Shown here piece after piece: positions 8,758 to 37,880 of a DNA stretch of 64,000 bases (positions are counted from its first letter, which is position 1; each line of letters opens with the position of its first letter). Origin of the DNA: Cladosporium halotolerans (taxonomy: Eukaryota); assembly GCF_011745625.1 (NCBI RefSeq), contig NW_027191477.1:124001-188000 (forward strand), read 5' to 3'. The notes beneath the pieces were generated by a model. It saw nothing but the letters and a program-made list of their open reading frames with translations. It had not been told where the DNA came from and made no database searches. A program made the translations under genes and the position numbers.

Positions 8758-10218
8758 ATGGTATGCGCTTACCAACAACATCACCTGCATCCTTCAACCT
8801 GCTAACAGCTATCGCAGGGCCAAAACCAGTCTGGCCTTGGAGGCGCCGGCGGCCCTCCTGGCGCGCCCGGTGACAACAACAAGAAGGGAGATAAGAAGGA
8901 CAAGCCGAAGTACGAGCCGCCGCCACAGCCTACAACCCGCATCGGCCGCAAGAAGAGAAAGCAGGCCGGCGCTTCTGCAGCGGCGAAGCTACCCACAGTA
9001 TACCCAACGGCGCGATGCAAATTGCGAATGCTGCGGATGCAGCGCGTGCATGACCATCTGCTGCTGGAAGAAGAGTTTGTCGAGAACCAGGAGCGTCTCA
9101 GGAAAGCGAAGGCGGCGAACACCGTGACGCCTGCTTCGGCAGGAGGCGATAGCGATGCTCTGGATCGCAACGCGGACGAAAGAGGCAGAGTTGACGACAT
9201 GAGAGGCTCACCGATGGGTGTTGGCAACCTGGAGGAGCTTATCGATGACGACCACGCGATCGTTTCGTCAGCCACTGGACCGGAGTACTATGTCTCTATC
9301 ATGTCTTTCGTGGACAAGGATCTCTTGGAACCCGGCGCTTCGATTCTTCTGCACCACAAATCTGTTTCCGTGGTCGGTGTGTTGACAGAGGATACCGACC
9401 CGGCTGTGAATGTCATGAAGCTGGACAAGGCGCCCTCGGAGACATATGGAGATATCGGAGGTCTCGAGTCGCAGATTCAAGAAGTGCGCGAGGCGGTCGA
9501 GCTGCCTTTAATGCACCCCGAGCTCTACGAGGAGATGGGTATCAAGCCTCCGAAGGGTGTCATTCTCTACGGTGCACCCGGTACTGGTAAGACGCTTCTT
9601 GCAAAAGCCGTCGCCAACCAAACATCCGCCACCTTCCTCCGTATCGTCGGCTCTGAGCTCATCCAGAAATACCTCGGCGATGGCCCTCGACTCGTACGAC
9701 AACTCTTCCAAACAGCAGCTGAGCACGCGCCTGCCATTGTCTTCATTGACGAAATCGACGCCATTGGTACCAAGCGTTACGAATCAAGCTCCGGCGGTGA
9801 GCGCGAGATCCAGAGAACTATGCTTGAGCTTCTGAACCAGCTCGACGGTTTCGACGACCGTGGTGACGTCAAGGTCATCATGGCAACCAACAAGATTGAC
9901 ACCCTCGACCCTGCGCTCATCCGTCCTGGCCGTATTGACCGCAAGATTCTCTTCGAGAACCCGGATCAAAACACCAAGCGCAAGATCTTCAACCTGCACA
10001 CCTCGAAGATGAGCTTGGCGCCCGACGTCGACATTGACGAGTTTGTGACGCAGAAGGATGACCTCAGTGGTGCAGATGTCAGGGCCATCTGCTCTGAAGC
10101 TGGTTTGCTTGCGCTCAGAGAGAGGAGAATGAGAGTTAACATGACCGACTTCCGCGCCGCAAGGGAGAGCGTGCTGAAGACGAAGACCGAGGGTGAGCCT
10201 GAAGGCTTGTACTTGTAG
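8758..10218 (+). CDS. RPT2: 26S proteasome AAA-ATPase subunit Rpt2 (S4); exons 8758-8760 (ATG only) and 8818-10218
   Basis: GAPGTGKT Walker A, IVFIDEID Walker B, PEGLYL HbYX tail. Intron 8761-8817 (GTATGC..GCTAAC..CAG) gives MGQNQSG.., matching the known myristoylated Gly2 of Rpt2. Confidence 0.97.
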
Positions 10219-10786
10219 ATCTACGTTCTACGTAATGCGTGGATGTTCGGATGGACGAGGATGCTGGAGGAGGTAGAGACGTGTATAACAGCTTTTACGG
10301 TATCGGTAAGATGCTGAATAGGCATTATAAATCCCATTGCTTCAACTTCCTAGACTTCGGTGTATAACCCACGGCACGATTCAGCCTTTTCGACCATTCT
10401 TTCTATGCTACAAGTTCATGACGTTGTATCTCGGCGGTTTACCATAATTGTAGTGCTGTGCTCGCGCCGATGAACATGCCGGCTCATGGGACCCTGGCTC
10501 AGATCTGTCACGTGCCGACGTGTTAGCGCGTGGCGGCGGGGCCTCGCTTGCCGCGCTGTGCTGCCTGACCTTCCGAGTCCCCAACCACCGTCGTCAACCT
10601 CTGGCCTTGCTTCGGCAGTGCCAGCATGCACTGCCCAGCACTGCCGCGGTCAATATGCCTGCACTTGTATTATGCACGAATGAAAAGTTAGGTATCATAT
10701 TTTTCTTATCTTCCACACACTGATTGAACCATTACCCTTCATCTATTACCATCACCACGCAGAAGAATCGCGCCTTGCACGCCTCG

Positions 10787-12214
10787 ATGGCAACGCGCGC
10801 CTTTGCCGGCCGCACCCCAGAAGCACTACTCGGCAGAAACGACTCGAAGAACCCCGCCACAACCTGTAGAGGTATCACTAATTCTGGCCGCCCGTGTCGC
10901 CGCGCCATCGCATCGCCCAAGGCACGAAAGAGCGGCGTCGTCGCTGTAGTTGGCGACGAAGATGAAGGCGTCGAGAGCGCGTCTTTCTACTGTCATGATC
11001 ATAAGGCACAGGCGGTGAATGATGCTTCGAACGGAATTAAGGCTCCCGACAGAAAGAAGACGGAGCTGTACCCTCTACAAGAAAGGAGTAGTATCGACAC
11101 GCTTGTGCAGAGACTCGGTGTGGAGGGTGTAGGGAGTGAGATATCGGCTAAAGTGAGACCTGGAAAGCAGAAGCCTGGGAAGAAGACTGGCAGGACTGAA
11201 GCGCCGTATGCGGAGAAGTACGGACTCGGGCACCCGGAGAGGAGGAAAACTAAGCATGAGAAGAGTTCGTTTTGGTCGATGCTGTGTTGCGGTGGTGGTG
11301 GCGACGATGAGGACTACGTCGAGATAGTCCGACACAAGAAGCGTGTCGGTGAGCCGAGACCATCCAATCAAAGCCCCCGACCATCAGCTCCTGAGCATTC
11401 GAGACCGTCTTCAACCCCTTCACGAATGTCTGGCTCGTCCACCACGCCTCAGAAACAGACCACCGAACTCCCTACACGGCCAGCCAACTACCACACCGCC
11501 TCCACGAACTCCCAAACCGGTCATCTACTCTCATTCATCCCGCAACACCTCTCCCCAACCCTAACCTCCACTCTTCTAACCGAGCTCGGCAAACCACCCA
11601 ACCCAAACGACGAAGAAGGCTACATTTACATCTTCTGGCTCACACCGCAACAAGACAAAGCACCCGATACATCCACAGCGCGCTCTCTCCTCTCTCCACC
11701 AACCTCCACGCGCCGCGAACGCCGAGTCTCCGATGTCGTCAGCGAATTCTCCTCCACGACCGCCTCTTCGCCCCGCGGCGCCAGCACCAATACCAAAGCC
11801 CGCCCAACGATCTTGCTAAAAATCGGCCGCGCAAACAACGTGACCCGGCGCATGAACGAATGGCAGCGCCAATGCGGCTACGCGTTGACGCTCGTGCGCT
11901 GGTACCCCTACGTTTCCTCATCCTCAGCGCCCAGCAGCCCAGCGCACACGCCCGGCGGCCAACAGAGTCCTCGATCGCGGCCTGGTGCAGGGCGCAGGGA
12001 GTCCTCAGGGCTGGTGAGGAAGGTGCCGTGCGTGAAGCGCGTGGAGCGACTGATTCATCTTGAGCTGGCGGAGAGAAGGGTTATGAGGGATTGTGGGGTT
12101 TGTGGGCGGGAGCATAGGGAGTGGTTTGAGGTTGAGGGGAGTGAGAAGGGCGTTAGAGGAGTCGATGAGGTTGTCAGGCGGTGGGTTGGTTGGGGGGAGC
12201 AGCAGGTGGGTTGA
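10787..12214 (+). CDS. DUF1766 / T5orf172 (Mug113, GIY-YIG-like) domain protein
   Basis: N-terminal TCRGITNSGRPCRR..YCHDH; C-terminal GYIYIF..LLKIGRANNVTRRMNEWQRQC..RVERLIHLEL..CGVCGREHREWF. Confidence 0.8.
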   Translation: MATRAFAGRTPEALLGRNDSKNPATTCRGITNSGRPCRRAIASPKARKSGVVAVVGDEDEGVESASFYCHDHKAQAVNDASNGIKAPDRKKTELYPLQERSSIDTLVQRLGVEGVGSEISAKVRPGKQKPGKKTGRTEAPYAEKYGLGHPERRKTKHEKSSFWSMLCCGGGGDDEDYVEIVRHKKRVGEPRPSNQSPRPSAPEHSRPSSTPSRMSGSSTTPQKQTTELPTRPANYHTASTNSQTGHLLSFIPQHLSPTLTSTLLTELGKPPNPNDEEGYIYIFWLTPQQDKAPDTSTARSLLSPPTSTRRERRVSDVVSEFSSTTASSPRGASTNTKARPTILLKIGRANNVTRRMNEWQRQCGYALTLVRWYPYVSSSSAPSSPAHTPGGQQSPRSRPGAGRRESSGLVRKVPCVKRVERLIHLELAERRVMRDCGVCGREHREWFEVEGSEKGVRGVDEVVRRWVGWGEQQVG

Positions 12215-24748: not shown

Positions 24749-25948
24749 CTACTTCAAGAGAGTATTCCCCGCCGTTTCGTCCAAGTTGCGAATCCTAGTT
24801 GGCGGAACGGCTTTCGCAGCTCGTTTACCGACCTTTTCAATAGGCTGACCGCCGTTGCTAGGTATCGACGAAGAGTTCTCGTATATATTCCCGATGCAGC
24901 TGCGGCCAAGCGCAGCTTCGCAAGATTTATCATCCGTTGTCGGCGCCCAAATAGACCCCTCGGTTTTTCCAACGGTCGCTTTGACATGGCTGAACACCGA
25001 GCCTTCGAGAAGCGCGTACGACGACTGACTCTCGATCGCGGGTCCGGTGATGTCGAACCACAAGTTGTTGACTAGGTGCACGACACTATTGCCGCCGAGT
25101 GTGAGGGAACGATCGCCTGCATGATGGATATAGTTATTTCTGAATGTAATTGTGTCATTGGCGCCCGTGAAGGAGAGTGGCCGGTGGTGGTAAGTGTCAC
25201 ACCTGGGAGACCAATTGGTTTGTCCTTCGATGAAGTTGTTGGACATCGTGACGCCGGCATTCGTTCCATTCCTCGTGACGATGTGGTGGCCGCCGATTGA
25301 AGATGTCTGTCGAGAGTGTTAGTTATCACGAGACGCGGAGGACCAGAAGACGTCCTCAAGACGATCCCATACCTTGATATGATCGATCCAGATGTTGGAT
25401 GTGCCGTCCAGAGTAATGGCATCGCCACCCCACTTATATCTAGCATTCAGGTTCTTGATCTCGAGGTTCTGGAGAATCACATTGGTCGTGCCATCTGCCA
25501 TTAGGAACCCCTTGCCTCGAATGATCCCCTTTTTGCTGACTCCCAAAACAGACTTGTCGCTCGACACAACCAGAGGGTATAGCGATGCTTTCTGATACTC
25601 CATTGCCACCATCGGTGCAGCAGGTTGTACGGTCTGGCACCATCCCCTTTTGTTGATCGCTAATTGACACATGGATGCTATTTCGTAAGGAGCACATCCA
25701 CACTCCCATGCGATGCCCTGAAGCTCTCTGAAGTCGAAGGTCTTCTCAACGACAATGTTGAGAGGCCCCTCCTGAACCAGGTATCTCGTCAATTCGACGG
25801 TGTTACTGGGAGTGACAGTGGGACCTGCCACGCCACCAGATGCCTTAGAACCAAAGCCCTCCGATTTACCAATAATAGCGACGGCCTTCACGGTTGACAA
25901 AACCGCTGCCAAGCAATTGCCTAATTTGAAGCTGCCTTTGAGCATCAT
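24749..25948 (-). CDS. Pectin lyase-like protein (polysaccharide lyase family 1), possibly catalytically degenerate; exons 25948-25373 and 25306-24749
   Basis: Signal peptide, EGFG..ASGG, VSSDKSVLG, NVILQNL, WGGDAITL, NIWIDH, HLVNN. A 66-nt intron 25307-25372 (GTATGG..ACTAAC..CAG) joins two ORF-track pieces. Confidence 0.88.
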
Positions 25949-26407
25949 CCTGGGTAACGCGAGGAGTCGCGAGAAGTGAGGTAGGGGGAGGGAAAGAGCA
26001 AGACAAAAATTCTGGCAAATGCTATCTATGATATGAAAATATTCGAGCGAAGTGTGACATCTTCAACATTCTGATTTGGGTTCGTCGCATAAAACCTTAC
26101 CCAATCATCGGCCAACGGCTTTGCATCCAATAAGGGCAACTCAATTACACAAATGGTAGTCTTCATCAATTTTGAGTTGGCAGATGTCAAGTCCTTATCG
26201 AAGGCCCGATGATTCAGAGCGTATCACTCGACTTACCTCGTCTCAGCGTGAGAAATGGAAGAAGTGTTCTCAGACATGAATCAAGCCCTTTACTCCTTCT
26301 ATCCATCTCGTGAGGCGAAAGTAGACGAGCATATCTGACGATGGCCGCCGATACAACGTCTTACACAAGACCTTGGTCCAGCCACCTTCCTTCTCATCAC
26401 CGCTGCC

Positions 26408-27105
26408 TCAACTGTCAGAGAGCTCGCACTTTCTTCTCGCCTCAATCTCCAAAGCCCAATCCGCGCCCCTTTTAATCCCAATCTCCAGCGCTGTAGGCAA
26501 AAGCCCCGCCTTCTGATCGAATGTCGCACCAGCCGCGATCAGCAACCTCGCAGCATCGCCGCGATCTTGCATAGCAGCCTCATGCATGGGCGTCTCACCC
26601 GTGTCGTCCTTGGCATTGACATCCGCGCCCGCGCGAATCAGGAGCTCGACGATGTCTTTCTCCTTGGGGTACAAGGCCGAGTGCAAAGCCGTCCGCCTGC
26701 CGTAAGAGGTCAGCGCGTCGACGTCGGCGCCGGCGGCGAGCAGCATCTCGACCGTCTGTATCTGGCCGTTGTGCGCGGCGATCGAGAGAGCGGGCATTCC
26801 GTTGAAAGGCCAGTTCGCATCAGCGCCAAGTTGGAGGAGGTGCTTCATCCGGTGAGTCTGACCATCGCAGAGAGCTTTGCGGAATTTGTCATACAGATCG
26901 TCTAGGGCCTCTTCTGACAGCTGCGGCTTTGGTGGTGGAGTCGGTTGGTGTCGTTCATTACTTGGGGTTCCACCATAGTAGTGGTTGTGGTCAAAGAGGT
27001 CTCAGCGTCTCACGCATCGCTTGAGAGGGATTGGATCCACTTACAAGCATCGCCGTAGTGATTCTTCGAGTCTCCCGTGGAGATGTTGCCCGTGTAAGTT
27101 GCCAT
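26408..27105 (-). CDS. Ankyrin-repeat protein (about 217 aa) with an N-terminal amyloid-like motif; proposed exons 27105-27045 and 27000-26408
   Basis: About four ANK repeats (ALSIAAHNGQIQTVEMLLAAGADVD, TALHSA..LLIRAGADVNAKD, GETPMHEAA). The frame is open about 50 codons upstream of the track's Met. An upstream ATG exon with a perfect GTAAGT donor splices in frame; the acceptor (GAG at 27001) is non-canonical, so the junction is less certain than the ANK call. Confidence 0.75.
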
Positions 27106-27534
27106 CGTGCGCAACGGCACGATAGACAACCTCAGATGCGTGTCAGACAGAAGGTATTCAGGTTGTCTACTTACTTCCGCCAGTGATGACTTGGTGTGTA
27201 CGACTTTGATTTTGAAGAGGCGAGAGGATGGAGTGAGCTCTCAGCCTGAGAGCAGGCTGAGTGTAAGCCTAAAACGCCAGCGTCTGAAAAGGGCAAGGCG
27301 GTGGCGTTCTTGCGTGTCTCAAGCGAGTTTGGTTACATTACAGCAGCAAATTATGGGGGAGGGGGGAGCATGATATTAAACTCATATGATTTGGTATAAC
27401 TCGTGAAGTCCTTTCTAAGTATGTCATGAAAGCCATTTCGGAGAGTGTCCATGAGCAACAGCACACACGCAATGCGTACATGTCGAGCCCAGAGATCCCA
27501 AGAAGAATGACTCCTCTGCATGCGAAATAGCAAC

Positions 27535-29577
27535 TTACACAGGCGAAGGGCAACCGAAAGCTTCGAGAATAAGTCAGCGAAAGTACCAGACGCATCAGAG
27601 GGCACACAAAACTTACAGGTAGCAACCGTACCACCGGGTCCAAAAACGGAAATCAGACCCTCAATCGCCGCCCAAATACCCATACCGCAGCACGCAAGGC
27701 CAGCAATGACGTAAATCAAGCACGGCACGCTCTGGACCCAGCTCTTCTTGAAGCCACGGATCCATCTCTTGGTACCATTGTCCATACGGGTGGTAACGCG
27801 AGTGTACGGGTTGAAGCCCTCACCGGGCAGGGCGGCGGCCTTCTGCACGATCCAAGCCAGGTAGAGCATGCCGGGGAAGGAGTAGGTGAAGTTGATCATG
27901 AAGAGGGCGCCGACCAGGGAGACGATACCGCCGAGGTTGGGAACGGCGGCGGCAATGACGAAGGCCAGGATCCAGTAGCAGGGGCCCAGGCAGTACCAGG
28001 CGATGCGGCCCTTGCGGGTCGAGATGGGCGGGAAGCCGAAGGCTTGCTGGAAGACTTCGAGGTAGACGGTCTTCATGCCGATGTTGAAGTACATGACTAG
28101 CGGGGTATTAGTTGAGGGCTTCCGGTGAGAGTGATGGTGGTAGCGGTGTGTGACTTACAGACTGCTATGAATCCTGTCAGTAGTGTGAGAACGTTTCCGG
28201 CTGTTTGAATGCCATATGGCCGGATGACGTTAACAATGTTGTTGGCGGAGTACTGGCCCCAGAAGGAATAGACGAAGACGCCGAACAGGAGGTAGACGAT
28301 GCAAATGAAGGCCTGAGCGCAGAAGAGGCCCTTCCAGAAGTCCATAGGGTTGCGCATCTCAGCGAGGAACGCGACAAAGAGGAGAGCACCGGCGTAGGCG
28401 TAGACCATGGTGTTCACGGCGTTGAACTGCGAAGCGAAGCCAGGGACTTGCTGCTGGTACTGGTTCGGAGGCTGGCCGGCAAAGACGACGACGGGCTCGA
28501 TAGTCTTGATCAGAGTGGACTTGAGCACGGCAGGGTAGTACGGCTTGTACAGCGCGGCGGCACACATGATGACGAGGAAGTTGGCGATGTTCATGAAGAC
28601 CGCAGCGTTCGACAGCCAACCAATTTTCTTCAGACTGCGGATGATACCGAAGATCATGCCGATGCCCATAACCAGGACCATGACACCGGAGAAACAGATT
28701 TTGCCTTTGGAGATCTGCGCGATGTTGGTCGATTTGCTCATGATCAGGACGGCGACTGTGAGGAATTGCTGGATAGATTGCGCGACGTTGATGCAGTGGC
28801 GAGACTTCTTGCCGAACAGGCGAAAGAAGGGGTCACCGTAACTGCACATGGGGTAGCGAGAGGAGTCCATGTCGAGGAAGATTTTCCAGATTGCCCACCC
28901 ACTGAAGGCGGCGAAGATACCGAAGATGATGTAGAGCGCGACACCAGTGCCATAGCCGACACTTGAGAAAACGAAGCTGTTGCGAAGTCAGCATGGAAGA
29001 CAGTGACGTGCAGAGCATTGAATACTTACGGAGCACCAGACCAACCAAGAATATCAGTGGTGATCAGGAAGAACATTTGACCCCAGGAGGCAGTCCTCAG
29101 AGCACGTGCGGCAGTACGCCACTCAGCATCAGTGGGCTTCAGAGGATCTTGAGAGGTCTCAGACGAAGCCGTCTGGGTGATGGTACCATCAGGGCCCTTC
29201 GACTCGGTGATAGCGGCGGGAGACTTCTCGATGGAGGACTGCAAGCGCATTGCGCGCTCCTCCTTGTCTCGCCTGTGGCGCGCCCTGCCCTCAGAGGAGA
29301 ACTGGTCCTTGATCATGTCGAAGAGGGGATAGCTGCCGTGGAGGGCTTTGAACCTCTCGTTCTCCTCCGCCTCCATTTCGCGCTCGAGCTTCGCCCAGAA
29401 GGTATATTCCTCGAAGGTGACGGTTTCGTCGACGCGCGCTGCAAACCCCCAGGTGCGCTCTTGGACAGCACCCTTCTCCGAGACGACGGAGGGCTGGCGC
29501 GCCTGCGCATCGATAGCCATCTCCATCTCGGCGGTGGGATGGGTGACTGTAGTGGCGGCGGCTGGGTAGGAGTCCAT
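27535..29577 (-). CDS. Amino-acid permease, AAAP/Aa_trans family (Mtr-like); exons 29577-29030, 28976-28159, 28096-27617, 27560-27535
   Basis: RALRTASWGQMFFLITTDILGWSGAP, MVYAYAGALLFVAFLAEMRNPMDFWK and many TM helices; three canonical GTAAGT introns in frame; ends ATSFGCPSPV*. Confidence 0.92.
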
Positions 29578-31625
29578 GGTGACGGCTTGTCTGCCCGACA
29601 GGCCAAGGGAAGTCAAGAACGGATGAGATGATCACAGATACTCGACGAAGAGGGTCTCGAGGGGACTCTGGACGTCTATATAGCTGCTGCCCATGGGCTG
29701 GGCCATAACGGTAGCGGAAAGCATGGCGTGTCTTAGCCGTGAAGCTCGCAATTGGAAGGCGGAGACCAATCGATATCAGATAGCCAGTGACCACCTGCTG
29801 CATGCGGCCTAGCATGAGATCCGAGGGAAGCACATTTACGAGACCAGATATCAATGCAATGCAAATGCAGAGGCCGTTGCCACCCAGATTCCAGGAGGGG
29901 TTACATCGTGTGCCGTGCACTCCGGGGCACGGCAGCTCACGTGCAAATGACACGGCCGGCGCCTCGCCTAACAAGCATCCCAAGGTTCGACCAGCGATTG
30001 GGGACCGAGGCTTAGTTTAATTAGGAAGGAGAGTCGAGCATGGATTGTGAGGCGAGGTGCAGGCGGTGTTGGTGGTGCACGCCAGGATTCGGACGTTCTT
30101 CTCACTCTGGATTCCCAAGCGAGGAGTGACAGACAACCATCACCAAATCCCGCGGCGCTTGCTATCGCTCTGTCAGCATTGGGTGGCGCTATCATTTGCG
30201 CCGGCCACAACGTCCCTGCGGAAAAGACACTTTGACGCTACCCGCCCCGGACTCCAAATTGAGTACGGCGGACGTTTTGTTTGCCTCGGCCAAGGCACGC
30301 GGCTCAAAGCGGTAGCGCGGAGAGGCACAGATGGCTTGAGAGCTTGCAGGGTCAAGCACGCGCTATGGCGGTATGTGGGATATTGGCATTGTCTTGAGTC
30401 GTGAGGTCGTGAGCTTGGTCTCGCCGCCGTGCCGAACCTCGCGGGCGACTCGTTTCCCCATCGTGGGGAGAAGACGAATAGGCGAATCATGCAAAAGTGG
30501 GCCTTTTAACCGCCGGCACGCTCACCTGCTTGTGGGGCCGCGATAGGGCTTCGCCTTTTTGCCGCTCGAGCCCTCTGCTTGCAGATAATAACGTTACAAT
30601 TATCACCGCTCATGAGCAAACCGCCGGATACCTGACGTGCCACTGGGGCACCGTGAAATCGCGCCAATCACGTGCTGTTGTTCGGATGTTGTACGAGACG
30701 TCTTCGCGCCGGGCACTTCGCGGTTGCTTGTTGAACCCACACATGGTGTAGGATTACAGTAGTACTGTAGCAATAATCTGCAGTGTGCCTGTACCCTAGC
30801 GCACCTTCTACCACGTGGCTTGGCAGCGACGTGGATGCTTATCAGACAACCTCAATCTACCACGACTCAAGCTGTTCTGGAATTCTAATGGTTCAGCCGA
30901 CTGCCGAGGGTCTGGTATCTCCCAGCCAGACTTGTGCACGATCGACGAACCGATCCGTCGGAAACGACCCGATTGCTGCAAAGTCCTGCAGAACGCTGAA
31001 CAGGGGAGTGTAAAGCACCTTTTTCCATGAATGCAGATCAAAAGCCGCAGACACGAGGCTATAGAAGCGTTGTGGATTTACGCTCGAGGTCCTCAATTCT
31101 GAGGCCCCCGAAGCGCGGAGGCCGTCGGGTGGGTGGGATCTTATTTGGGTTAGCGTCTTCTCGGGACGTTCTACAAGTCGCGGGAACTGCCCTGCCCTAC
31201 CTTACATAGGTACCTCAGGAGCTATATCACTGGTTGTTTACTATATGGAGTAGATTCATTGCTATGGTTTCTTCAATGCTGCTGGGAGCCTTTGCTTATC
31301 TGATGCCCGCACTTCGGGCTCCTCCCAAAGATGAACTGTCCGATCGAGCAATTGATGCCGAGGCGACCAATCAGCTTCGTAGCCAGCAAAGTCACACGCA
31401 AGACGCACCTTGGCTGCCGAGGCTGCGTACATGGAGGTAGGCTCAACTTCACCGCCTGTCTGCGAGACACCTCTACAACGCGTATCTGTCTGATAGTAGC
31501 ACTGACGACGCAAGCATACGCGACCATGGAAGACTAGCATGACAATGAATCCCACTCCCGGGCATGACTGCCCCCAAACATGCTACTGGCTCACATAAGC
31601 GCCCTGCTGTATTCGGTCAAACAAC

Positions 31626-33923
31626 ATGGATCATGAACATAAACGACGCAAGATAGGACATTCCTATTCGAATATCCACGCGAATGATCATACCAAGTTA
31701 CATCTTGGCGATGTTTACGAAGGTCACACAAACAACTTTTTCGGCGCAAACGAATTGACGGAGAAGGCTGAAGCCATACTTGAGAGCCTGAAGTCAAAGT
31801 GGGACAATATGGACGGCCGCAGAGAGAACTTATCGGAGCCGGCTCGAGACACCTTCCAGTGGTTGTTCGCCCCGTACTCCACATTTGACCACTGGCTCCG
31901 TGTTTCACACGATGAGGACTTGTTCTGGGTCACCGGAAAGCCTGGCTCTGGCAAATCGACTTTGATGAAATTCGTAACGGAAAGCGAAAGCACTGTCGAG
32001 TCTCTTCAGGCCTGGGGTGGTACTGACAGGGTCTTGACAGCCCATCATTTTTTCTGGCACCCCGGCACTGCGGAAGAGAAGTCGATCAGTGGGCTCTTGC
32101 GAAATTTGCTTTACCAACTTTGTCGAGCTGATCTTGATTTGATGCGCGTTGTATTCGAGCCACGATGGGAGCGCTCGAAACAGTACTGGGCCAAAATTTG
32201 GACGGTGCAAGAACTTTGGGAGAGTCTGCACCGATTGCGCTCAGCTTCCTCCACAAAAATATGTCTCTTCATCGACGCACTGGATGAATCGCAGCCGCAA
32301 GACCGCCACACGGAGCTTTGCAAAAAGCTTTTGGAGTTTTCCACCATTCCAAATGTCAAGGTTTGCGTTTCCAGCCGGCCTTGGCAAGTCTTTCACGGAT
32401 CTTTTGAGCGACTCAATCTCAACTTCAAAATGGACATCATGATAGGCAGAGACACTAACGTTTTCGCATACCATCGATTCTTGGCGGCTAAGGATGTCAC
32501 TGCAGATGATGATTCTATCCTCGAATGCCAACTAGAGGAGCTCGCAGACTCTGTAAGCTCTCGTGCCGAAGGCGTCTTCCTCTGGGTACGTTTGATAGTG
32601 GACGCTTTGTGTCAGCATATAGTGACAGGAGCTACTCATGAGCAGCTCTCTGCCAAATTGTTGGAATTCCCCGCGGAGCTCGAAGATTTCTACCGAAAGA
32701 TGATCTACGATAGAGTGCATAGTACATGGCGTGTGCTATGTGCCGCGTTCCTCAGACTGGCTTTGGTGTTGTCTAAGGACAAAGCTAAAGGCATACGTTC
32801 CATGGACTGGCGGGCGTACTGGGCTGCTGAGAGGATCTACGAAGAAAGCCTTACGAACAGTGTCGGGCAACGACCCCATCAGCTCCTAACAGCTCTTCAG
32901 CTGAGACAGAGAAGGCTCACCATCGAGAAGACACTCGGCGCAGCTTGTGGAGGGTTTCTCACAATGTTTTCGCAAGATTGCACTCGTGGACCTCGATATA
33001 AAGTCGATTTCGCACACACCTCTGTGATCAACTTTCTAGAAACGCCGCACATGCAGGAACTGCTCGCTCAACATGCTCCCTCCTACCTCATAGGAGAAGA
33101 CCCCTTAGCACTGATCTGGCTGGAAGTATCTAAAATTGGCCCTTCTGAGGCGGATTTGACAGAAAATACCTGCGACGATCTTCATCAAATAATTTGGGAG
33201 TCGTTTCTCTCAGTTGGTATCAAGCAACCCCCTGCTAAATTTGATACCCAGCTCGAGCGAAGCGCTATCTTTTTCCACGATAAATTTTGCGTTCCCAGAA
33301 AGACACACTTCCACCATGATTGTGAGCTTGGAGATTTTGACAACGAAGTCGTTTTGATCATAAAGGGTCTAATGCTCTGGGCTCACTTCCAATATGCCCG
33401 CCGGGCGATCCGCAGTTGGCCCGGCATCTTGGCTTTGCACTCACTGGCATCCAGAGCTTTAGAACTAGCTCTTGCTCCAGCCGACCGGATCGATTACGAT
33501 TTTGTTGAACTCTTGTTCGAGCATGGTGCCGATATTCGCTGCTGCACATCAGCATGGATCGATCTCGTGGCGAAATGGGCTACATGTCGTACGACCTCGG
33601 CTCTCGATCATTCCATGTGGGCAATAGCTAAGCTCCTAATACAACACGGTGCATGCCTCACCTCTCAAGTGCCACTTGAGCAATGTTCACAGGCCCCGGA
33701 GGTTCAAGTAGTTCTTGCTGCTTGTGTCCCCGAAGAAAAGTTGGAGGAGCTCTACGCCCTGTTGGAGGATGTCTCCTCACCAGAAACAAGAGCTCGGATA
33801 GGTGCAAGGGTCACAGAGATCAGGCGAACGGTGTGGCCCAACACCTTGGCTCGGCAAGACAAAACTGCTGTTGAGACCTTCGATCTCGATGCAAAGGCCA
33901 TGCCCACCGTCGAATCGGCATGA
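31626..33923 (+). CDS. NACHT-domain NLR-like (STAND) protein with N-terminal HET-s-like motif and degenerate ankyrin C-terminus
   Basis: TFQWLF..FDHWL, FWVTGKPGSGKSTLMKF (Walker A), HFFW, LFIDALDE (Walker B), KVCVSSRPW, RAEGVFLWVRL; C-terminal VELLFEHGAD and KLLIQHGA. Confidence 0.9.
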   Translation: MDHEHKRRKIGHSYSNIHANDHTKLHLGDVYEGHTNNFFGANELTEKAEAILESLKSKWDNMDGRRENLSEPARDTFQWLFAPYSTFDHWLRVSHDEDLFWVTGKPGSGKSTLMKFVTESESTVESLQAWGGTDRVLTAHHFFWHPGTAEEKSISGLLRNLLYQLCRADLDLMRVVFEPRWERSKQYWAKIWTVQELWESLHRLRSASSTKICLFIDALDESQPQDRHTELCKKLLEFSTIPNVKVCVSSRPWQVFHGSFERLNLNFKMDIMIGRDTNVFAYHRFLAAKDVTADDDSILECQLEELADSVSSRAEGVFLWVRLIVDALCQHIVTGATHEQLSAKLLEFPAELEDFYRKMIYDRVHSTWRVLCAAFLRLALVLSKDKAKGIRSMDWRAYWAAERIYEESLTNSVGQRPHQLLTALQLRQRRLTIEKTLGAACGGFLTMFSQDCTRGPRYKVDFAHTSVINFLETPHMQELLAQHAPSYLIGEDPLALIWLEVSKIGPSEADLTENTCDDLHQIIWESFLSVGIKQPPAKFDTQLERSAIFFHDKFCVPRKTHFHHDCELGDFDNEVVLIIKGLMLWAHFQYARRAIRSWPGILALHSLASRALELALAPADRIDYDFVELLFEHGADIRCCTSAWIDLVAKWATCRTTSALDHSMWAIAKLLIQHGACLTSQVPLEQCSQAPEVQVVLAACVPEEKLEELYALLEDVSSPETRARIGARVTEIRRTVWPNTLARQDKTAVETFDLDAKAMPTVESA

Positions 33924-34450
33924 TCAATCTGCTGCTTGTCTCTTACTAGGAGTTTACCGTTGCTACTAGAATCCTACCACATGAGAAACGCTCTGTCGCT
34001 GCAAACACAAAATATCACGCAATGGTATTGCCTGTACGTAAGCCGTAAAAGGCTCCGTCTCCCATGTTTACAGAGCGAGTGTACGGGGCTCTGGTCGACA
34101 ATCCCGCAGAGCAGCCTCCACGATTGAAGACAATACCAAGCATGACCTCACGGCGCAATTTATTATCAGTAATTCTGCGCGCATCCTTGAAGATGATCTC
34201 AGTTCTGACATCTTCAGGAGATTGTTTCCAGATCAAATAGTGATCTCAAGCGGAACAGGTTTGGTTTCTAATGTCCTTCTCCAACTCTAACCTAGTCTTA
34301 GAATTGTTGAAATGCTAATCTTGTGAATTATCATCTACTGTTGAAGTAGACCCACGGTAAGGAATTGGGAGAATGGCCTTGCTTCAGCAATCCTTTCGAA
34401 GCTCTCCCTGTTGCGACTGCAACATATGCGAAGCCCAGCTTGTCTCATCT

Positions 34451-35377
34451 TTAACCACAAGCCACGGCAATGCTCTGGAAGCTGTCAGTATCGTAGCACC
34501 CCGCAGCGCCGACCCCTCGAATGCCTTGAATGGCAGTGAAAGTATTCTCTGTGCAGCCAAAGTCGGTGTAAGTAACGACCTTGCAGTTGCTCGCCAGGCT
34601 AGTGACAAAGAGGCTTGCCCCGTTACCACTTTGGTAGCACTTGTCTGGTTCGGTGATTGTCCCCAAGCGGGCACTGCGGCATTCTCCGCCAGCGTACGTG
34701 GTGATCTCGAGGCCTTCATCCTCTTGTCTTGACTCTGTGAGAGAAGTATCATCCTCAGGGATAAAAGGAGCGCCGTTTGCATCTACCCATTCGACTTGTT
34801 TCCAGTATTTATCCTCGGAGATGGACCTTTCGAAAGTGTCGTTAAAGCCGGGTGGAAGGTGATCTGGGTCTTCTGGTCTCTCCAGCTTAGCGAGACTGGA
34901 ATCAACATCCTTATGTGGCAAGCTGGAGTCATCTTCGTTTGGAGTCGTATGGTCCCCAATGCTTCTTCTCTTCTTCCTATAGCTGAAGCAATTCTGATTG
35001 TATTGGGAGTTTGCGTATTGCCTGGCGCACGACAGCTACGCACTAGTACCGAGAGATCGAGTGGTGAAACAGCTGACGGGGGAACCGAGGAAGACACTGT
35101 CCTGAACAGAGCATTGTGCGTTGAAATTGCCTCTATAGACAATGCTAATCTCCCCAACAGAGCCCTGAACGCCCGTGATGCGAAGCGATCCGCTCTTTTT
35201 AGCCCCTTTGCTGCAACAAGAGGCTTGCGGCCAGTTCTCTGTTGCACCGACGTCAGCTCTTACAGAGCATACTGCTAGAACTCCCTGACAGCCTCTGTTG
35301 TTGTATTTTCTCAGTGTCTGAGCGGAAGAAAGCCCGACGAGCAGCATGAAAGAAACATAGATGAAGGCATTGACCAT
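34451..35377 (-). pseudogene. Secreted two-domain Cys-rich precursor (308 codons) interrupted by one in-frame TAG at 35036-35038; pseudogene or recoded gene
   Basis: ORF-track pieces 35377-35036 and 34921-34451 are in the same frame and the 38 intervening codons are open (LSCARQYANSQYNQNCFSYRKKRRSIG..). Signal peptide MVNAFIYVSFMLLVGLSSA; the C-terminal half is paralogous to 36401-37090. Confidence 0.7.
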
Positions 35378-36400
35378 GTTTTGTGATGTGGTTGCTGTTG
35401 GAAATGAAGTAGTATAGCAGTTGCAGCCGTGTGCAGAGCGTTTCGGGTAGTAAATAGAGACTGAACAATGTGTAGAAGCACCCGCATCATTTATGTCTCC
35501 GAGAGTATTGAAGGTAGCGAGTGCGTCTTGTCATCTCGGATGCTGGCCTTGTCTCATGACGGGTGTCGTGCATTAGCACTGCAACATACATGGGCGAAGA
35601 GAGACTAAATGGTAACTATTGATTGTTTAGTCTTCCGAAAAGCACATGAACGTGAATCGGAGAGCTGGCTGTTGGGCCATTAGAAGAGCTCAGAAATTGC
35701 CAAATGAGCTAAGAATATATAGCAATGATGGAAACCCAAATCATCATACCGTCAAGAAGACAGATGGCAGGGAACGGGGCACAACTTGTAAGTTTTTTTG
35801 TTGTAGACTGAACTCTGTGAAATACCAGCGGGCAAACGATACTGCAAACCATGCTACGGGCATACAATATGCCCAAGGTTGCGTTGGGCTGCTACTTTTT
35901 GATTAGAAAGCATCGGCAGGATAAGGCCAGAGACCGAACTTAACCAGTCGAAGTCGCGAACATCTCATCAGAGATGTCGCCAGCTCGGAACCCGGGAAGG
36001 AGTCCAACAAGGTACTTGTGATTTAGCATGGGCCTTCAATGATCATGGGAGTTAAATGACGGGAGATTCTTGCATATAGGCACAATCCTCTGCAATCCTT
36101 CTTCGACGTCTCGACGTAACGTAATCATTCTGCTACACCCAAAAGCGATCAATATACAAGCATAAGCAACGTGGTAATCAAGGGCCGCTTGTCGAAGGCC
36201 CCGGCTCTACTCTGCAGTTTTGGCTTCGTATCTCGTAAGGTAGTATTCGAACCGCTCGCCCTGCTTGAAATGAGAGACTTCAGTATGCAAGATGTAATTT
36301 GGAGGTAATAAACGAACTATCATACAAAAGCTCTCACGCAGCTAGGCAAACCCAAGGGTCGGGTGTCTTGATCTGCCGAACCTCAGAATTGTCCCTACGG

Positions 36401-37090
36401 TTAGGCTGGCAAAGGCCTGCAGTCCACACGGACGCTAGAAAAAGTATCTGTAGTATAGCAACCACTTGCATCACTCAGAATTGGTATCATGTCTAACGAG
36501 TCTTCCGTGCAACGTTCATCCTCGAATGATACAACCGCACAATCGCTTGGAAGAGAGTTCACATAGATGCTCGACGCCTGCACACTGTAGCAGATCCCGC
36601 TCTCTACGACTCGCGCGACAATGTCACCATTGCAATCGATCTCTGGGTGCGCTTGCAGGGATAAGGGCTTCCTCGTGTCAGCTTTCTCACGCTCTCTATC
36701 CCGGGCATAAGGAATGCCATGCTTCTGTTCGTAATCGACTTGGTAGAAGTATTCCTTCTCAGATATTGGATTACCCAGTGCGTCGTAATAGCCAGGAGGT
36801 AGGTAATATGGATCGTGCTTCTGTGGTCCAGTCTCGTTCGCGGAATCGGGTTGATTGGCTATCTGGCGAACCTGATCGAGGTTTCCATCACTGTGAGGGA
36901 TGAAGTGATCTGGGGACAGATGGTGCATCCTTTGATCGTTGCGAGACTGCAACGATGATGGGAGGCCAGGAATATCCACAGCTGCTGTTTGATCCTGGCA
37001 GTAGAGAGCCCCACAGTTCGAGCTTTGTAGCGAGCTCGCCTGTGTCGCGAGACGGCAAAATAGCGTGGAAGCAAGCATCGAGACATGCAT
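36401..37090 (-). CDS. Putative secreted protein with C-terminal six-Cys domain, paralogue of 34451-35377
   Basis: AAAATG start and weak signal-like N-terminus. DPYYLPPGYYD..ISEKEYFYQV and the C-terminal domain ending GCYTTDTFSSVRVDC align with the neighbour. Confidence 0.7.
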   Translation of the reverse strand: MHVSMLASTLFCRLATQASSLQSSNCGALYCQDQTAAVDIPGLPSSLQSRNDQRMHHLSPDHFIPHSDGNLDQVRQIANQPDSANETGPQKHDPYYLPPGYYDALGNPISEKEYFYQVDYEQKHGIPYARDREREKADTRKPLSLQAHPEIDCNGDIVARVVESGICYSVQASSIYVNSLPSDCAVVSFEDERCTEDSLDMIPILSDASGCYTTDTFSSVRVDCRPLPA

Positions 37091-37880
37091 TTTTAATAGT
37101 GTTCTGCCGCAAGGTGAGCTTGGTGACGTTAATTGAAGGAAGCGAGGTGTTCGAACCTGGCAGATCGGAGACCAACCCTTTTCTTCTGCAGAGATGATGG
37201 CTCTAAGCCCGTGGTTCATGCTTGGTATGTACTCACGGTGCTCACACAGCATTATCCGACTTCCGCTTCCCTGCGCGCCTAAAAAGTGTTAGTCTCCGCG
37301 GGGCTCAAGACAGATATGTACTGTGACGATTCCCCCGCAATCCACGCTCAATGACTGTCACAATAGATCCGCCAGGATTCGCTGATATCTAAAACTGGAA
37401 AAGACGCCAAGGAAGTGGATGCTACGTACTTCGGAGGCTATGTGCGTTGATAGTAGAGCGGATTCAGCGGAAGGCCCAAAGCCACGATGTAACGAGGTCA
37501 CGCCCCGTGGCCACGCAAGTAAAGCCCGCTGAGGGCCGATTGCTACCTGCACTTGCAATAGCATTGCCAAAAAGGTATGCTTAACTATCGGACAAATGGT
37601 TCTTGTCCTTCATGGCTCCCGCCAAAGTCCGCGCCTGTCAGAGCTAGACACTCAAATTCGGGTATCTCGTCCGTTCTATCATACACAAGCAATAAGCCAG
37701 ACGACGATGTTCTAGATCCCGGCCTTTCGTAAGTGCTTGCAATTTCTTCGATCTTTTATGCATTGCAAGATTGGGTGGTTCCTCCAATGGCCCGTCAGTT
37801 CTCCACGCCGAAGAGTGGTGGGAGGGAAAGACATGAGAGCGATCCTTTTTGGCATTTAGGCACCATCCTAGGTTCACCTC

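Follow-up and report, generated by a model that had tools for sequence, protein, structure and literature searches.

In a 64,000-nt stretch of the Cladosporium halotolerans genome (contig NW_027191477.1, positions 124,001 to 188,000 of the forward strand; hereafter the window), two nearby genes encode proteins that begin with related copies of a short HET-s-related amyloid motif (HRAM). One is a gene for a NOD-like receptor (NLR); the other is a small, oppositely oriented gene for an ankyrin-repeat protein. In the current picture, fungal amyloid signalling is a relay with two parts, the N-terminal motif (r0) of an NLR templating the C-terminal motif of an executioner protein. What is unusual here is the presence of a single HRAM at the N-terminus of a protein that otherwise carries only ankyrin repeats, the NLR itself being of a known kind. 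An earlier reading of the window, made from its letters alone (the sequence-only reading), had put the two proteins forward as an amyloid-coupled pair with matching motifs. We found that the ankyrin gene is real and that both motifs belong to one family, and that the motif comparison does not support a matched, coupled pair. The ankyrin protein may be an accessory that is recruited by an amyloid fibril.

The ankyrin gene is a real two-exon, spliced gene. Exon 1 (27045..27105, - strand; 61 nt, ATG at 27105) codes for HRAM positions 2 to 21. It is followed by a predicted 44-nt intron (27001..27044, -; GTAAGT...GAG), which has GT..AG ends in the gene model for this genome, and by exon 2 (26408..27000, -), whose translation and Pfam matches comprise the motif tail YLFDHNHYYGG, a Pro-rich linker, about four ankyrin repeats and the stop codon. 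Joining both exons yields an in-frame protein of 217 aa that starts exactly as the sequence-only reading had quoted it. Pfam found Ank_2 at an E value of 7.9e-25 and Ank at 2.1e-21 over three stretches, corresponding to about four repeats. In the open frame at 26408-27001 (-) no ATG occurs before residue 52, and an upstream exon is therefore needed. Homologues of the protein exist (P0001, 97% identity; P0002, 73% identity).

Of 23 listed sequencing runs, none of them recorded as RNA, four were compared over the ankyrin locus: X12, X16 and X18, from relatives, and X1, which is identical to the window and probably its source. In run X16, from a relative 95-99% identical to the window, an 880-nt contig with a depth of 132.9 joins exon 1 in frame to the ankyrin open reading frame (ORF), as the sequence-only reading had predicted. 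It begins some 89 nt ahead of the ATG, spans 27188-27045 and resumes at 26989 to continue past 26300; at the joint two letters differ. On the coding strand the skipped part opens with GT. In the joined form, 61 + 2 nt are followed by the ankyrin frame, and the product reads ...GDAY-HNHYYGG. Exon 1 and the ankyrin ORF are thus shown to share a single reading frame, be the contig cDNA or derived from an allele that lacks the intron. The earlier splice model was correct for exon 1 and for the in-frame join and missed the acceptor used in the relative: since the contig skips from 27044 to about 26990/26992, the X16 acceptor lies about 9 nt further downstream, which costs the protein three codons (LFD). 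The X16 junction (26989-27045, -) lies 9 nt past the sole in-frame AG acceptor seen in this genome. Either the acceptor has moved between close relatives or the splice used in the window itself differs from the model. In run X12 (90-95% identical) the ankyrin stretch is present unspliced, and in run X18 it was recovered in pieces only.

Motif membership was assessed with several profiles. A first profile, A1, covering 37 positions and built from 11 NLR N-termini, retrieved 46 proteins at E<=0.001, two of them at E<=1e-10, from 1.84 billion representatives. Common to these matches is the pattern G-H-x-Y-x-N-[IV]-x-x-x-[DG]-x-[AS]-R-x-H-[LY]-G-[DN]-x-Y. A position-specific scoring matrix (PSSM) was then derived from 52 motif copies of other proteins, with the window genes and the NLR orthologues P0121-P0123 excluded and with seven regular-expression matches removed as false or out of register. 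The NLR motif scored 45.8 bits on this matrix and the N-terminal 24-mer of the ankyrin protein 26.6 bits. Among all 66,606 stop-free 24-mers obtained by six-frame translation of the window, only the NLR motif reached the ankyrin score; the third-highest value was that of the unspliced exon 1 (17.7 bits), followed by an unrelated stretch at 10.9 bits. None of 200,000 shuffles reached the ankyrin score either, a control that is generous because the profile is anchored on [HQ]-x-G-[DNHE], which is present in the ankyrin copy, too. When decoy proteins were scored, one of 226 exceeded the ankyrin protein; by HMMER, the sole such protein was P0256, a true member missed by the regular expression.

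HMMER gave 31.2 bits for the NLR and 15.1 bits for the ankyrin protein (E 3.4e-4 in 283 sequences), compared with 1.5 bits for the best of 118 generic ankyrin homologues (P0003-P0120). A previous profile of seven copies was weaker, with 8.2 bits for the best domain of the ankyrin protein, which was still the top non-NLR domain among 1546 ORFs. The 30-residue N-terminal stretches quoted by the sequence-only reading were reproduced, including their ungapped identity of 8/30. Judged by these scores, the resemblance is one of family membership and not of chance.

In its published definition, an HRAM has Gly at position 19, a basic residue (Arg or Lys) at 15 and a hydrophobic core made up of positions 5, 8, 10, 16 and 18, and position 3 is Asn in HRAM1, Gln in HRAM2 and His in HRAM3 (PMC4518210). 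NLR residues 10-30 correspond to HRAM positions 1-21 and, on this numbering, read H3, Y5, I8, A10, D12, K15, L16, H17, L18, G19 and D20. All defining features are found: Gly 19 (G28), a basic residue at 15 (K24), the complete hydrophobic core (Y14, I17, A19, L25 and L27 at positions 5, 8, 10, 16 and 18) and the HRAM3-specific His 3 (H12), a His that occurs in 26 of the 52 collected copies. The context also is that of an r0, namely a single N-terminal copy ahead of an NPHP3_N domain that begins at residue 76. By signature and context, the NLR motif (31653..31745, +, including an aromatic/Gly tail up to residue 40) is an HRAM3-type r0. Similar r0 copies with GH-x-Y...H-[LI]-G-D are found in NLRs encoded beside HeLo-related effectors (supplement rows 75, 81 and 113; PMC4518210). 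The earlier description of both motifs as HET-s-like was borne out: the two copies are members of a single family, and the HRAM3 r0 signature is recognisable in that of the NLR.

In case of the ankyrin protein, the initiator Met falls on HRAM position 2 and the copy reads Y5, N8, S10, G12, K15, N16, H17, Y18, G19 and D20. It thus has Gly 19 (G18), a basic residue at 15 (K14) and aromatic/hydrophobic residues at 5 (Y4) and 18 (Y17). At positions 8, 10 and 16 it has the polar residues N7, S9 and N15. Asn 16 occurs in 3/52 collected copies, and Asn 8 together with Tyr 18 defines a recurring sub-type among accepted copies of the published set (supplement rows 35, 42, 98, 107 and 132; PMC4518210). 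The closest published look-alike is the NLR r0 of row 132, with which the ankyrin copy has 11/20 residues in common by hand count. Like published r0 copies, it has few charges and many Ser, Thr, His and Asn residues (PMC4518210). Its location is outside the usual HRAM context, which is an NLR N-terminus or an effector C-terminus, since it begins a 217-aa protein made only of ankyrin repeats. The Pfam model of the HET-s prion domain, PF11558 (HET-s_218-289), was not listed for the NLR or the ankyrin exon-2 ORF at E<=0.1, nor for 17 motif proteins at E<=0.01, and neither it nor another prion-domain model came up for any protein scanned; PF11558 matches just 38 of 155 HRAM proteins (PMC4518210).

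The NLR gene (31626..33923, +) is a single ORF of 765 aa counting the stop, and its coordinates as well as residues 11-40 as quoted by the sequence-only reading agree with the ORF translation. Pfam identified NPHP3_N at residues 76-251 (E 2.1e-28), a NACHT match of 30.3 bits against a cut-off of 26.7 and DUF7791 at residues 373-484. The NTPase core maps to 31851..32414 (+), and the translation contains the P-loop GKPGSGKST. Compared with what defines a fungal NACHT NLR, the P-loop STAND NTPase is present and the C-terminal repeats remain below threshold: the whole protein had no ankyrin match at E<=0.1 in Pfam, the C-terminal 246 aa reached only 14.3 bits for Ank, under the cut-off of 21.1, and a weak BLAST match linked this region to the small ankyrin protein (29.6% over 98 aa, E 0.001). 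On these grounds we annotate 33273..33689 (+) as a degenerate ankyrin-like region. The sequence-only reading had credited the small protein with about four good repeats, which stands, and the NLR with one or two degenerate units, which are detectable below threshold only.

Three orthologues, P0121 (88% identity) and P0122 and P0123 (55-56%), are identical to the NLR in length and start. Homologues were examined as the best 120 of 3088 at E<=0.001, taken from 8000 scored candidates; a similar N-terminal stretch was seen in 15 of these 120 and not in the other 105. The top named relatives are Dothideomycetes proteins. A word-based search for shorter proteins carrying the first 60 residues of the NLR returned two candidates, neither of which scored. 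Searching the ESM Atlas with residues 1-45 gave no usable feature match, and all structural rows had TM values of 0.32 or below. As published r0 rows carry the same signature, the NLR is by sequence an ordinary member of the described class of HRAM-NLRs and represents already-known biology.

We next consider whether the two motifs match each other. The comparison does not support the proposal of a matching cognate pair. The NLR and ankyrin motifs are identical at 6/24 aligned positions, whereas family copies from different proteins share 9.08 positions on average (median 9) and only 14% of such pairs share six or fewer. Of the 52 unrelated copies, 19 resemble the ankyrin motif more closely than its NLR neighbour does, and 45 resemble the NLR motif more closely than the ankyrin motif does. 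Further, the pair differs at three of the five core positions (I8/L16/L18 in the NLR, N8/N16/Y18 in the ankyrin protein). The published cognate triples examined have matching residues at positions 8 and 18 in r0, r1 and r2 (rows 113 and 132), and of 90 r0 copies, 82 grouped with their cognate repeats (Table 2; PMC4518210). Modelling of a complex between three chains of NLR residues 1-40 and the unspliced reading of exon 1 gave no verdict (score 0.00, run made without controls).

These numbers bear directly on the possibility that both genes form a split NLR, in which the two neighbours are coupled by heterotypic stacking of their N-termini and the ankyrin protein serves as trans-acting sensor, adaptor or cap. 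Several observations would fit. The genes are only 4.5 kb apart with one gene between them, inside the 20-kb neighbourhood within which co-localisation has been called (Wojciechowski 2022, PMC9815663). Both motifs lie within one HRAM family and have K15, H17, G19, D20 and Y5/Y22 in common, and the NLR and its orthologues are without recognisable repeats. The lack of repeats is, however, general to the NLR clade and not specific to this locus. An identity below that of 86% of random family pairs, the many unrelated copies closer to either motif and the mismatched core at positions 8, 16 and 18, which departs from the agreement and cognate grouping of published systems, argue against it as well. 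We consider a cognate pair of this kind improbable, and the 4.5-kb adjacency of the two genes as suggestive.

An origin of ankyrin exon 1 by duplication of the NLR 5' end was considered and rejected, as the two show no DNA similarity (score 8.0 compared with a shuffle mean of 8.1).

The combination of the motif with ankyrin repeats recurs in unrelated proteins, as judged from domain searches. All 46 A1 matches were scanned with Pfam at E<=0.01 or E<=0.001. Eleven carry NPHP3_N/NACHT, three carry ankyrin repeats without NACHT (P0263, P0258 and P0252), one a ULD_2 domain (P0274) and one a sub-threshold PigL_N/SesA match N-terminal to the motif (P0265), while the remaining 30, mostly short fragments, showed no family. 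In P0263 (600 aa) the motif occupies residues 8-42 and only ankyrin repeats follow. P0258 has a C2H2-like N-terminus, three motif copies and then ankyrin repeats, and P0252 combines ankyrin repeats with a motif copy 30 residues from the C-terminus. BLAST aligned both P0263 and P0258 collinearly with the ankyrin protein of the window, from the motif through the repeats.

Tandem copies spaced 20-39 residues apart were counted by hand in P0257, P0271, P0249, P0258 and P0277 and resemble the r1/r2 pairs of HET-s-type domains. Other layouts were observed in passing. P0250 has a C2H2-like N-terminus and two motif copies, P0274 carries its copy ahead of the ubiquitin-like ULD_2 domain, P0277 has three copies before what appears by eye to be a kinase Gly-loop, and P0246 combines a signal-peptide-like start with two Cys-containing copies. 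P0265 contains the motif at residues 162-188 after a helical region (PigL_N 20.7 and SesA 19.4 bits, both sub-threshold), and in P0247 it lies at residues 214-244 behind an N-terminal helical region. The layout of P0265 would be that of an effector-type domain followed by one copy, yet about 200 residues follow the motif (about 100 in P0247).

A metagenome scan with the ankyrin ORF gave 115 pattern matches and no relatives among them, while a scan with P0171 led to two loci. One of these, L001, contains a 1042-aa ORF at 8965-12090 (+) that encodes an NLR opening with the same motif (35.9 bits). Within this 14.4-kb locus no second motif copy was found in about 9 kb upstream and 2.3 kb downstream, which as a single locus carries little weight.

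To account for an HRAM on an ankyrin protein, we propose a mechanism modelled on NWD2/HET-S of Podospora anserina, in which an NLR r0 templates a related motif on its partner. By this analogy, ligand-driven oligomerisation of an NLR would gather its r0 copies, the gathered copies would fold into a nucleus of the beta-solenoid amyloid type, and this nucleus could template any protein bearing a compatible copy. The single motif of the ankyrin protein might then be templated onto a growing HRAM fibril and its ankyrin module thereby carried into the signalosome, where it would either bring in a bound client or weaken the signal by blocking the ends of fibrils. This fibril could be one that a protein other than the neighbouring NLR has seeded. 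Given N8/N16/Y18 in the ankyrin copy and I8/L16/L18 in the NLR copy, the preferred partner of the ankyrin protein may be encoded elsewhere, and the death effector of the NLR would lie elsewhere as well. We tentatively adopt this reading of the ankyrin protein as an amyloid-recruited accessory, either adaptor or damper, whose preferred fibril is perhaps seeded by another protein; it is a real possibility that we would place somewhat short of an even chance.

A number of points weigh against this proposal. Amyloid folding, templating and the accessory role are all inferred by analogy, and the two neighbouring motifs lack specific similarity, as described above. The ankyrin copy is only a partial HRAM, with three of five core positions polar (N8, S10 and N16) and Ala at position 3. 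The first half of exon 1 varies among relatives: X16 carries I8T, D12N and two synonymous changes, and X12 adds T10K, as read from the listed differences. Over three relatives, the K-N-H-Y-G-D-A-Y half has a single, synonymous change among the differences listed. With 24 further differences unlisted, all of these numbers are lower bounds. Run X16 is only guessed to be RNA, and if it is DNA, the contig represents an intron-less allele that supports the reading frame and not expression. P0263, P0258 and the other library proteins were taken as sequences as given, and their gene models are not vouched for. Further, no effector of the HeLo, SesA or PNP_UDP type was found in the 64-kb window by Pfam, which was run on 56 of 171 ORFs of at least 110 aa (picked by eye) and, at E<=1, on 14 ORFs around the NLR, and the six-frame PSSM scan gave no third motif copy in the window. 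In this respect the sequence-only reading, which had seen no HeLo/HELL/SesB-type effector here, was right. Finally, no in-frame stop occurs between the start of the X16 contig and the ankyrin ATG, and for this reason an additional upstream exon is not strictly barred.

A HeLo-like upstream exon of the ankyrin gene, comparable to the arrangement in P0265, was considered unlikely, with only about 250 nt between the ankyrin ATG and the transporter gene upstream of it and with the X16 contig starting about 89 nt upstream of the ATG.

Apart from recruitment as an accessory, the ankyrin gene could be a relic. It would then derive from an NLR of r0-NACHT-ankyrin type, or from exon shuffling, with the nucleotide-binding oligomerisation domain (NOD) lost and the motif inert, and its adjacency to the NLR would reflect local birth and death of NLR-type genes. 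The locus would in that case amount to an ordinary HRAM-NLR with its effector elsewhere. The r0-like character of the ankyrin motif (few charges, rich in Ser, Thr, His and Asn, single copy, extreme N-terminus), its closest published look-alike being an NLR r0 (row 132; PMC4518210) and the variability of its first half among close relatives are in line with such an origin. A decayed motif is harder to reconcile with the reading frame retained at 73% identity in P0002, with the full-length joined contig of high depth in a relative and with the near-constancy of the K-N-H-Y-G-D-A-Y half over three relatives, subject to the 24 unlisted differences. Descent from an NLR is likewise not reflected in the homologues, where the best 120 of 3088 gave no BLAST match to the ankyrin region, or in the 5' ends, whose DNA is as dissimilar as shuffled sequence; and similar architectures occur independently (P0263 and P0258). 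We therefore doubt that the gene is a relic.

A non-functional resemblance is very unlikely. On this view, the start of the ankyrin protein, rich in N, H, Y and G, would agree by coincidence with a profile that is short and degenerate, and the motif on non-NLR proteins would have another role or none. In its favour are the shortness of the motif, the polar residues at three of the five core positions of the ankyrin copy and the anchor that makes the shuffle control generous. Against it, the six-frame control is independent of that anchor and placed only the NLR above the ankyrin copy, generic ankyrin proteins scored far lower, and the copy sits exactly at the N-terminus, beside an NLR bearing the same motif family.

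The accessory reading could be extended to NOD-less HRAM-ankyrin proteins in general, which would then constitute a third class of fungal amyloid signalosome components beside NLRs and executioners, acting by docking, clustering or capping, with the HRAM3-like motif as a general docking module. We regard this extension as unlikely on present grounds. If it were true, a sensor or adaptor domain would be delivered in trans through amyloid templating, and HRAM3-like docking would also occur at internal or tandem sites in zinc-finger/ankyrin, ubiquitin-like-domain and kinase-like proteins. It would counter the view that fungal motifs occur at the N-termini of NLRs and the C-termini of effectors only. 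An apparently well-expressed motif-ankyrin gene would add a regulatory or adaptor layer to the relay, comparable to the RHIM adaptors of animals.

Among known systems, HRAM3 NLR/HeLo pairs (PMC4518210) are closest to the NLR of the window, having a single N-terminal r0 (H3, Y5, hydrophobic residues at 8, 10, 16 and 18, K15 and G19) followed by a NACHT-type NTPase. Unlike in these pairs, the window was not found to encode a HeLo, HeLo-like or SesA protein bearing a pair of C-terminal repeats, and the motif-bearing neighbour is an ankyrin protein with one N-terminal copy. An adjacent NLR was reported for 98 of 155 effectors, and pairs of unlinked NLRs and effectors are therefore known (PMC4518210). 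NWD2 itself has the ...A-R-V-H-V-G-N core of its r0 (supplement row 3; PMC4518210) in common with the motif family of the window. By hand count, it shares 7-8 of 21 residues with r1/r2, compared with 5/20 for the window pair. HET-S combines a pore-forming HeLo domain with two C-terminal repeats, whereas the partner in the window has no killing domain and carries its motif at the N-terminus.

The NLR12 (HRAM3-like)/PNP_UDP systems (PMC9815663) are similar in that the partner has a single HRAM3-like copy. There, copies on the NLR side outnumber those on the effector side and the genes are often non-adjacent. The NLR12 partner differs from the one in the window in being a PNP_UDP enzyme whose copy is C-terminal, and the NLR12 motif is reported mainly from Sordariomycetes. 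RHIM adaptors such as RIP1/RIP3 and those of the Drosophila IMD pathway (PMC7889193) offer a functional likeness, since they use a short amyloid docking motif at varied positions in proteins that are neither receptor nor executioner. The RHIM is a motif family unrelated to the HRAM of the window, and the same source contrasts it with fungal motifs, described as confined to NLR N-termini and effector C-termini. A search of PMC4518210, PMC9815663, PMC5485727 and PMC12261475 turned up no description of an ankyrin protein that carries an HRAM and lacks a NOD, in agreement with the sequence-only reading, to which the arrangement was unfamiliar from the literature.

The local gene order is as previously described: the ankyrin gene (-) is followed by an Aa_trans transporter gene (-), a 2-kb gap and the NLR gene (+), which leaves 4.5 kb between ankyrin and NLR genes. 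The amino-acid transporter (27354..29631, -) was recognised by PF01490 on the ORFs 27354-28154 and 28100-28987 and is relevant as context only. Directly downstream of the ankyrin gene, a pectate-lyase/beta-helix gene extends over two ORFs at 24752-26062 (-), presumably split by an intron. On the other side, just downstream of the NLR, the region 34000-37300 has the lowest GC content of the window (0.486-0.505) and contains several ORFs of 110-295 aa on both strands without a Pfam family, including one of 295 aa at 36404-37288 (-). At a greater distance, a 496-aa open frame with a C-terminal T5orf172/MUG113 domain (E 6.5e-20) lies at 10724-12211 (+) amid housekeeping genes.

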